DNA of 62,667 bases, filler included, from Hausera hauseri (lineage: Eukaryota), in assembly GCA_046269625.1 (NCBI GenBank). It is 9 parts of 9 records of this genome, joined end to end, with 100 filler letters (N's around TTAATTAATTAA, not from the genome) between each part and the next. Parts side by side here need not be neighbours in the genome. Positions count along the whole stretch, not along the records: positions 15,016 to 22,725 come from JBJURY010907422.1; 8 more parts are not named here. One strand, written 5' to 3'. The notes below the pieces were generated by a model. That model had not been told where the DNA came from. It made no database searches and saw only the letters and a list, made by a program, of their open reading frames with translations. The stretch's first letter is position 1, and each line of letters starts with the position of its first letter. This document shows, piece by piece, positions 20,545 to 22,725 of this stretch. The position numbers and the translations under genes were made by a program.

Positions 20545-22725
20545 AACGAATTCAATTGGCTAATCAACTTGCTAACTATAATGATGCTAGTAAAGTAAAT
20601 AGGAGCCGTCACTATATACGACTGCGACAAATTCAATGTGGGTCAGAAATATTTCTTGATGAATTTAGAAACATGCGAAGATGCGAGACCTTATAAGCTC
20701 GAGACAACAAAAAAGATATATATTATATCAGCAACGTGAATTAATCGCGATGGATGCAACGGAATGCATAATACGGAGATCTCGCAGTGTATTTCATTGT
20801 GGTAATATTCATGGTCATTCTTCAATAATCAAACCAACCACCCCATTAATCCCAATGAATGTGGATAGACAACATTGTTTAGGAGCTCGCATAACCGAAA
20901 AATGGTTTGGGCTAGTATGGAGTTGGGAGGTCAAGAAGGAAAAATAATCAGAGCCTGAAAGTGGCGGTAGTAAAATTAAACATGCATATTGGTTATTGTG
21001 TCGGAGCGGAATATGACACTGAAAAGGGAAAGGAAGGAGGAATAGTAGTCGCGGACTTTTACGAAACCGAGTTAAGATCCCTAAAAGCAATGTTTCGTAG
21101 TGTTACCAAACTATTCACCAGGAATCCAACGTGTCACATTCATGATGGTGCTTGCACGTTTCGAAGTTCAGTCGTGGTATAGAGCCAAACTTCTAAGAAA
21201 GATTTCAATTTCACCAAAATCAGAGTAAAAGTTTAATGAGACAACCGGAAAACGTTATACAAATAAATTACACACTAATACCAGATTAAGGGAAGATGTA
21301 GTAGAACATCGCACACCAACGATATTGATATCGGACGCACATGGATTAAAGTTAAATAGAAAAGATATATTAACACGTTGCGATGTTGTTATGTATGCCA
21401 CAAATTACGAAGCATTTTTCGTAGCAGAAACTGAAATCAACATAAAAACGTATGATTTAAAAACGCAAGATATACGGATTGAAGATTACCTTAAAAATCA
21501 AGACGACTATTTCTATTACAAAAGACAGACCGGAATAGCAGAACTATACCACAAAATGATAACGAATGACTGCAGATTAGATACTAAAGTCATGAGAACC
21601 AAATTGGCTTTACTGGATGCCAATCCAGAATTGGCATCACCAGTTATACCAATGAAAGGTGTCTTTGGACGAGTTACTGGAGAAGTCCTATTAACTTACG
21701 AATGTGAGAAAAGGGACGTACTGATCAATGTGGAAGAAAAAAGGTGCATGCAAGAACTACCAGTCATCTATGAGAATATGCCAAAACTAGCGATGCCACT
21801 CACCAGAGTATTACTGGCAAACTTAACGGAACCAACAATACTGAAGGAATGCAAAACGAGCCTAGGTGAACCTGTGTTTAGATGTAGTGGAACCGACTGG
21901 ATAAGTTTACCTAATGGAGGCGCTGCTGCAGCCCCTAGTAAGCTAACCGAAAGAAATCTAATCAAAGGATTATCAGAAGAGAAGTTCGAGGATACGGCTA
22001 ATAAAGGAATTTATAGGCCTAAAGACATAAAAGCTTTTAGGCAATTCTTGGCATTTCCACGACAAACAACTTATGAACTCAATCGGGCCATGTCAATGGT
22101 CATGGACGATAACTGCATTTAAGCAAAATGGGAATCGTTACTCGGCGCTAATCACTATCAAAGGGTAACTGCAGAAAGATTGTACAAGATTTGGGGACGA
22201 TTTCTGATTTTCGGACAAGCCGCATCTGGATTTTTAGCCATCTACTTTTTAATCCAACTAATTAAAGCAGTGATCCAAGCCATCATCAACGGTTATGAAA
22301 TATTCACATTAACAGGATTTTCCTGCAAAATTTTGAATGCAATTATCACACTTTTCGGGAAAATGCTCAAGGCCTACGAGAAAACGCGATGGAAGAATTA
22401 CGTAGAACACCACGTCGGGTATTATAATTGCAAACGGCGGGGAAAGCCCTCGATTTTGTATAGACGTAAAAATAAGAAAACATTAACACGAAAGGACGAC
22501 ACAGATGACGAGTAGCCTAAGGGAGGAGAAGTGAGTTTCAGAATGAAGATTCATAAGATGTACTCAGTGATTGACGCGCCATTACCCATAATGCCTACAA
22601 CAGCACCGATATATGAAGACTGCGACCGCAAATCAATCGTATCATGTAGGTCCGAAATCTACCAAAAACCCATTAATTATGATGATCCTTATGAAAAAAC
22701 AAAACAATATGGAGAACTACGGAAA
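20545..22725 (+). pseudogene. Chuvirus-G / gB-like (class III) fusion glycoprotein
   Basis: Signal peptide then VTIYDC, LETC, CIIRRSRSVFHCGNIHGHSS, GEVLLTYEC, CMQELPV..PLTRVL, GIYRPKDIKAFRQFLAFP, and TM FLIFGQAASGFLAIYFLIQLI. Several stops and frameshifts are present. Confidence 0.85.

Follow-up and report, generated by a model that had tools for sequence, protein, structure and literature searches.

A gB-type env in a decayed Ty3/gypsy element of Hausera hauseri with a probable GAG-cargo-ENV-POL layout

A broken class III env at a contig end

The stretch of DNA analysed here (the window, 62,667 nt) comes from Hausera hauseri (GCA_046269625.1) and consists of nine parts joined by 100-base spacers. 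One part, the contig at positions 15016-22725 (JBJURY010907422.1), carries at its 3′ end a broken env of the chuvirus-G/gB type (class III) and is followed by an N gap from 22726. Pfam, profile, model and hydropathy evidence place this env at 20524..22515 on the plus strand, with signal, ectodomain, TM and cytoplasmic tail. A hydropathy scan marks an internal signal-like hydrophobic stretch at 20560-20616 (+) and the TM region at 22207-22356 (+). An initial annotation of the window had delimited the feature as 20545..22725; an env is indeed present there, but 22725 is merely the contig end, and the env-like part stops near 22380-22515.

The motifs read in env are YDC (20617), HCG-NIHG-HSS (20795), GEVLLTYEC (21679), CMQELPV (21745), PLTR (21796), GIY (22006) and FPRQ (22054), all on the plus strand. 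The initial annotation had located these motifs and the TM segment correctly, but the spacer between HCG and HSS is four residues long, not three. The frame of env changes near 20700-20727, 20917-20988 and 21188-21256, with the motifs distributed across three reading frames, and stops include those at 20596, 21180, 22120 and 22513. Since three frames and several stops are involved, this copy of env is a pseudogene. The element copy is dead and cannot make its proteins.

As a query, env retrieved nothing from a word-indexed homolog search or from a PDB sequence search; a search over 1.84 billion representatives found 567 relatives at E<=0.001, of which 150 were listed. The Pfam family Monjiviricetes_fusion (PF24664) matches env at 21229-22515 (E 1.5e-43) and 20690-21022 (E 8e-06), with a score of 149 bits that lies above the curated cut-off of 27, and is absent from two further env pieces put through Pfam. 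Likewise, a profile built from 11 database env relatives recognizes four window pieces in order, spanning profile positions 10-625 of 633, and under an iE of 0.5 finds only one other place in the window, at 48483-48103 (see below). On these scores, the env match lies far beyond chance.

We modelled the C-terminal 429 residues of env with AlphaFold2, drawing on 105 of the 150 listed relatives for the alignment (mean pLDDT 80.7, pTM 0.53). A Foldseek comparison of this model with the PDB yielded 19 of 278 matches at E<=0.001, and all rows listed are herpesvirus gB, with low TM-scores of 0.24-0.33 in the top rows and rmsd values above 11. In BFVD the model matches chuvirus-like glycoproteins best (E 8e-16, 15-20% identity), and VIA-align ranks HSV-1 gB first at a Z of 7.2, which is a middling score by itself (rmsd 11.4, 238 residues). 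Taken together, the Pfam, Foldseek, BFVD and VIA-align results establish, at the level of predicted structure, that env is a class III glycoprotein of the gB type, as the initial annotation had proposed. With chuvirus (Jingchuvirales) G and herpesvirus gB it shares the class III fold, conserved cysteines, a long central helix and a C-terminal TM, with 15-20% identity in structural alignments with viral G and 10-14% with gB; unlike them, it sits inside a retroelement polyprotein. To judge from its fold and family, an intact env would have fusion activity.

A Gypsy-type LTR, PBS and Gag upstream of env

The window also holds other Gypsy elements, three of them here called G1, G2 and G3. Near the start of the env contig, at 15617..15963 (+), lies the 3′ part of a 5′ LTR, which was recognized by its similarity to the 3′ LTR of G1 (TG...CA; 11879..12591, +). 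The end of this LTR aligns with positions 12271-12589 of the G1 LTR at 73.5% identity (228 of 310 aligned bases), and the score of 131.5 compares with a maximum of 49 among 250 control stretches. No significant similarity was found between this LTR and that of G2 (z 2.1). A primer-binding site (PBS) of the tRNA-Arg(UCG/UCU) type, TGGCGACC, is present 3 nt past the LTR end at 15967..15978 (+), and eight of its 12 bases are complementary to the tRNA-Arg 3′ end given in supplementary file 1 of PMC13524379. A second PBS, at 40549 (-), matches the tRNA-Arg end at 11 of 12 bases, and a search of the window for tRNA genes found none. This second site lies directly past the G2 3′ LTR, at the contig end, which suggests either that an LTR was collapsed or that a further element lies there in tandem.

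Downstream of the PBS, a Ty3/gypsy-type gag (16012..17331, +) was identified by profile match. It comprises a capsid and an Asn/Arg-rich linker, has internal stops, and includes a single degenerate CCHC knuckle (16918-16962, +). Pfam matches to Retrotrans_gag (E 0.001) and zf-CCHC (E 0.002) are both under the cut-off. A profile made from the Gags of three env-first Gypsy polyproteins matches the Gag with an iE of 9e-12 and an hhalign probability of 95%, whereas hhalign gives the same profile 0.1-0.2% against the Gag of a BEL/Pao element in the window. Pfam did not find DUF1759, a marker of BEL/Pao Gags, in the Gag of this element; the window BEL Gag served as positive control (E 5e-18). The best blastp match between the two Gags has an E of 0.47, that is, no similarity, and tblastn likewise revealed none between this Gag and other window peptides. 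Used as a query, the Gag gave an empty word-indexed homolog search and only weak knuckle matches in a PDB sequence search. We class it as Gypsy-type because it matches the N-termini of database env-first polyproteins, not window peptides.

Judged by these sequence features, the context of env is Ty3/gypsy rather than BEL/Pao. The Gag profile, the Arg PBS and the LTR end like that of G1 thus bear out this part of the initial annotation, which had also likened the gag motifs, LTR and PBS to those of the Gypsy elements of the window; the likeness holds for the LTR and PBS but not for the Gag. The occurrence of a BEL/Pao element in the window raises the alternative that env belongs to an Anakin-like BEL/Pao element and is merely flanked by Gypsy debris. 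However, the lack of DUF1759, the dissimilarity of the window BEL Gag and, unless the contig is chimeric, the Gag profile result contradict this explanation, which we consider exceedingly improbable (see also below). Instead, a Gag that is not BEL/Pao-like stands on the same contig as a glycoprotein with a class III fold match.

Cargo between gag and env

The cargo that separates gag from env is ~3.2 kb long (~1,060 codons), and the distance from gag start to env end is ~6.5 kb. Most proximal to gag is a Leu/Glu/Lys-rich region (17496..19633, +), probably helical by composition and broken over several frames, in which an 85-nt segment is duplicated (17644-17728 and 18140-18224, 94%). No Pfam family reaches the cut-off in 17496-19633, no similarity to pol was found there, and 17694-18413 has no Atlas match. 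A Polbeta match in the cargo (E 0.005) is under the cut-off and was rejected.

The next feature is a ubiquitin-like domain at 19650..19880 (+), which matches Pfam ubiquitin at 28.9 bits (cut-off 25.4; E 1e-06), Rad60-SLD (PF11976) at an E of 0.001, and ubiquitin chains in the PDB. It does not match the ubiquitin-like-looking stretches of two listed relatives, P0011 and P0016, which Pfam did not confirm as such. A GRPRK motif, which we take to be AT-hook-like, was read in translations at 20047..20061 (+); GRPRK-like motifs also occur upstream of env in P0004, P0006 and P0011, with non-significant pairwise scores. Speculatively, this ubiquitin-like cargo may act on ubiquitin pathways of the host or serve as a module for processing or folding. 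A literature search on the capture of ubiquitin-like domains found nothing.

A helical domain at 20143..20520 (+) is in frame with the env signal and occupies the position where the planarian element Burro and relatives carry a BCL2-like domain. Position and helix pattern suggest a BCL2-like identity, but Pfam, a 3-sequence profile, pairwise shuffling, hhalign and Atlas gave it no support, and a single-sequence model (pLDDT 42.7) was too poor for structure searching. At this position the relatives themselves have weak Bcl-2 Pfam matches (P0010, E 0.001; P0007, E 0.2), and the pre-env region of P0007, used as a query in a word-indexed homolog search, returned P0007 alone. The pre-env cargo of relatives is variable (P0007 1-120, P0010 1-75, and the N-termini of P0016 and P0019), echoing Burro, and by eye includes ubiquitin-like and exonuclease-like stretches.

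Env groups with env-before-protease polyproteins

Among the matches listed, the nearest relatives of env are retroelement polyproteins (27-35% identity), with stand-alone glycoproteins behind (21-30%). In the best 10 of the 150 listed, retropepsin follows env in nine and the tenth ends at env; none of these ten carries a BEL/Pao marker. A Pfam scan covered 26 of the 150, comprising the top and the long ones. Env is followed by retropepsin in 11 of them, and five of these 11 also have a Gypsy RT-RNase H. The BEL marker DUF5641 occurs in one of the 26 (P0041), and integrase precedes env in one (P0141). P0121 has immunoglobulin domains fused N-terminal to a chuvirus-type glycoprotein, which may reflect either co-option of an env or an artefact of the gene model.

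After 18 short matches were dropped, the env alignment held 133 rows with enough coverage, and an IQ-TREE analysis was run on 44 of the 133. The window env falls inside a 16-row clade (99/96) that includes all 11 env-before-protease polyproteins, and FastTree recovers the same group from all 133 rows with a support of 93. The branch of the window env is long and, according to a warning of the tool, meets another long branch, P0016. Grouping of the window env with the P0041 clade was rejected by an AU test (p 2.6e-06), the group having been picked after the tree was seen. On present alignments, env belongs to a lineage different from the env of BEL-marked P0041, which agrees with an env independent of that of BEL/Pao elements. 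The DUF5641 marker of P0041 shows that an env relative can lie in a BEL/Pao setting, but the AU result, with its post hoc grouping, weighs further against the Anakin-like alternative.

The initial annotation had gone on to propose an independent capture of env by a Gypsy lineage. This proposal did not hold, in that env falls in an existing env-before-pol clade, and PMC13524379 describes gB-type env as widespread in Gypsy elements; the data document no separate capture by this element. The surprise expressed in that annotation fits an older state of knowledge, as in Dezordi 2023 (PMC10084718), which reports such endogenous viral elements (EVEs) near Gypsy fragments without clear capture. That report, together with the BFVD ranking of chuvirus-like glycoproteins as best matches, could favour a chuvirus glycoprotein that a Gypsy element captured recently and in this lineage only, or a chuvirus EVE lying by chance inside a Gypsy remnant. 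Among the matches listed, however, retroelement polyproteins rank ahead of stand-alone glycoproteins, env is in frame with the upstream cargo, as in relatives, and a second, diverged env-pol copy exists in the same window. The IQ-TREE clade with env-before-protease polyproteins largely refutes recent capture or chance insertion, and we regard either as very unlikely.

The second copy is that of G2, where a C-terminal env fragment (48103..48483, -; PF24664 E 2e-16) lies directly upstream of G2 pol and scores z 25.9 against the env described above. The Gypsy PR-RT-RH-IN region of G2 (44200..47531, -) comes after this env, showing an env-before-pol order in this genome. Elements of this kind evidently form a small family in the H. 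hauseri genome. In a 10-row RT tree that has no named references, G1, G2 and G3 fall together with P0003, P0005 and P0006 at 88/93, which is under the starred threshold. Between protease and RT of G2, at 46900-47200 (-), a stretch looks dUTPase-like by eye, in the position of the dUTPase-like domain of Burro, with no Pfam support. Troyka was considered as a match and rejected, since PMC12440569 gives it CG termini, as opposed to TG...CA in the G1 LTR.

Gene order and the assembly gap

The order read in the contig is LTR-PBS-gag-cargo-env-linker, and then the gap. No pol was found between gag and env with window peptides or the 150 listed relatives as queries, and pol sequence is absent from the whole 7.7-kb contig (15016-22725). 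A canonical gag-pol-env order with decayed pol was rejected because no pol lies between gag and env. Past env, the frame continues at 22516..22725 (+), probably as an env-protease linker, and ends at the gap. Past 22315 the env frame has one stop, versus 7 and 14 in the other two frames.

No protease motif appears between env and the gap, and 136 codons are left from the conserved glycine after the TM to the gap. In 10 of 11 relatives measured, the distance from this glycine to the protease motif is 90-350 residues, being <=136 in five of them, and it is ~215 codons in G2. The 136 codons left, the nearly open frame and the absence of a protease motif up to that point make it most likely that pol starts inside the gap, so that this copy would have its pol in or beyond 22726. 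The order env-then-pol is inferred for this copy from its relatives, and neither the 3′ LTR nor a target-site duplication is part of the assembled sequence.

An alternative is a non-autonomous gag-cargo-env derivative that has lost pol, provides capsid and fusogen only, and was copied in trans by a related Gypsy family (G1, for instance). Such an origin accords with a 7.7-kb contig that lacks pol, with the stop at 22513 that ends the env frame, and with an LTR end related to that of pol-bearing G1. However, the gap comes only 136 codons past the TM region, inside the 90-350 range of the relatives, the frame is open again after the stop, neither an LTR nor a polypurine tract was recognized before the gap, and the LTR identity to G1 is just 73.5%. 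We therefore hold a derivative of this type to be unlikely.

We conclude that this env very probably belongs to a decayed Ty3/gypsy (Metaviridae) element whose layout is a non-canonical GAG-cargo-ENV-POL. Against this conclusion stand the five of 10 measured relatives whose protease motif lies within 136 codons, where this element has none, the Pfam matches of the Gag that are under the cut-off, and the failure to detect the BCL2-like domain of Burro. The long env branch that meets P0016, the RT grouping that is under the starred threshold and, for the presumed fusion activity, the low TM-scores to gB also count against it. The initial annotation had recognized the Gypsy setting but overlooked the GAG-ENV-POL order.

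By analogy with single-ORF relatives and from knowledge of viral polyproteins, the ancestor would have encoded one long polyprotein, of which Gag and cargo would remain cytosolic. The internal signal and TM would thread Env into the membrane, and signal peptidase would release it. PR-RT-RH-IN, after Env, would be on the cytosolic side, where the element's protease would help to free the parts. Env would trimerise and work as a gB-like fusogen, allowing particle passage between cells.

Comparison with published elements

The element most resembles GAG-ENV-POL errantiviruses with gB-type env, in connection with which Sacco et al. 2022 is reportedly cited. The shared features are a Ty3/gypsy Gag, a gB-type env after gag and, by inference, before pol, and an LTR with a tRNA PBS; the differences are that the element described here is broken, has ~3.2 kb of gag-env cargo and has its pol unassembled, the comparison being with published descriptions. 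It has gag and then env without intervening pol, and its env groups with env-before-pol polyproteins (the 16-row clade above). Chary and Hayashi (PMC13524379) report that Ty3/gypsy elements carry gB-type env as commonly as F-type env, and that baits from the chuvirus-like (Anakin-type) glycoprotein of mosquito BEL/Pao elements led to 114 gypsy elements in arthropods. They also describe elements of GAG-ENV-POL order in Nematoda, Bryozoa and Platyhelminthes, and they argue that the acquisition was ancient. Since flatworms, nematodes and bryozoans have already yielded this layout, the element is mostly not new. It is one more decayed env-before-pol Gypsy element and documents no new env capture; a host other than a nematode, flatworm or bryozoan would extend the range in which the layout is known.

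Arkhipova and Yushenova (PMC6431247) describe for Burro a Gag, SMC-like, MATH, Ubi/SUMO-like (PF11976) and BCL2 domains, an in-frame Env with mononegavirus matches, and PR. Similarly to this planarian giant Gypsy (Burro/GYPSM1), compared here by description, our element has a Gag, ubiquitin/SUMO-like (PF11976) cargo and an in-frame env with similarity to mononegavirus glycoproteins, and protease comes next in relatives. Its cargo is, however, much shorter, it has one knuckle versus two or three, and its total length from gag start to env end contrasts with a Burro polyprotein of ~5,000 residues. Pfam found none of the Burro cargo domains MATH, BIR and ankyrin in the cargo fragments scanned. 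Burro-style ubiquitin-like cargo is thus present in a compact element too. Anakin, a mosquito BEL/Pao element with a chuvirus glycoprotein as defined by Dezordi 2020 (PMC7642597), has a glycoprotein of the same family (PF24664) but combines it with BEL/Pao Gag and pol rather than a Gypsy Gag, and the env reported here is apart from BEL-marked P0041.

A possible second membrane protein after integrase

In G1, RT-RH-IN is accompanied by a post-integrase membrane protein and a RING ORF. By eye, the membrane proteins of G1 (8070-9441, +) and G2 (44214-42716, -) each have signal-like and TM-like segments. A signal-like and then a TM-like segment follow integrase in all three relatives that extend there (P0003, P0006 and P0019) as well as in G1 and G2; the calls for G1 and G2, and for the second segment in P0006, were made by eye. 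The env element itself lacks its 3′ half, and this evidence comes from the relatives, G1 and G2. A C-x2-L-x-P-x-T-x-Y-x-I (FN3-like) motif, defined after these sequences were seen, occurs only in P0003, P0006 and G1 (2 of the 152 proteins compared; one window place). Pairwise scores between the post-integrase proteins are non-significant, and Pfam fn3 gives an E of 0.19.

Herpesvirus gB-type fusogens require accessory proteins. We tentatively suggest, as a doubtful but conceivable arrangement, that the env-first Gypsy lineage might be a two-glycoprotein system, with a gB-type fusogen before pol and a receptor-binding or trigger partner after integrase. This partner would possibly be a type I membrane protein with a fibronectin-III-like motif, analogous to gD/gH for herpes gB. 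In the literature searched, including passages of PMC13524379, we found no description of a post-integrase membrane protein in env-first elements; Sacco et al. 2022, supplements or figures may describe one. A conserved partner of the gB-type env would suggest how retroelement fusogens are targeted or triggered.

Rodriguez 2017 (PMC5408684) describes exonuclease and TM accessory ORFs. The last ORF of G1 (9442-11886, +; 814 codons) has a RING finger (Pfam E 3e-06), and its middle resembles a G2 ORF at 41761-41453 (-) with an E of 7e-05. The G2 ORF is DEDD-exonuclease-like by eye and has no Pfam exonuclease match.

Other contents of the window

The BEL/Pao element of the window occupies 48600-58389 (-); its contig ends share 77 identical bases, which suggests that the contig is circularly permuted and probably collapsed. 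At the N-terminus of its Gag lies a ubiquitin-like domain (E 4e-04), and the fingers of this Gag are CCCH instead of CCHC. After the BEL/Pao pol, ~3.2 kb at 50222-53476 (-) contains ORFs of 170, 431, 328 and 108 codons, which may be cargo or a viral insert; Pfam was empty for the three that were scanned.

Two decayed copies of a region with a protein-primed-type B DNA polymerase (DNA_pol_B_2, E 2e-08), which we presume to be Polinton-like, lie at 116-3438 and 58606-61346 (-) and are ~74% identical. A decayed mariner transposase is present at 23601-24350 (+; HTH_48, E 8e-16). A fourth Gypsy element (28100-31750, -) is more distant than the others, and a leucine-rich-repeat ORF (29808-30536, +) lies between its RT and RNase H/integrase pieces.
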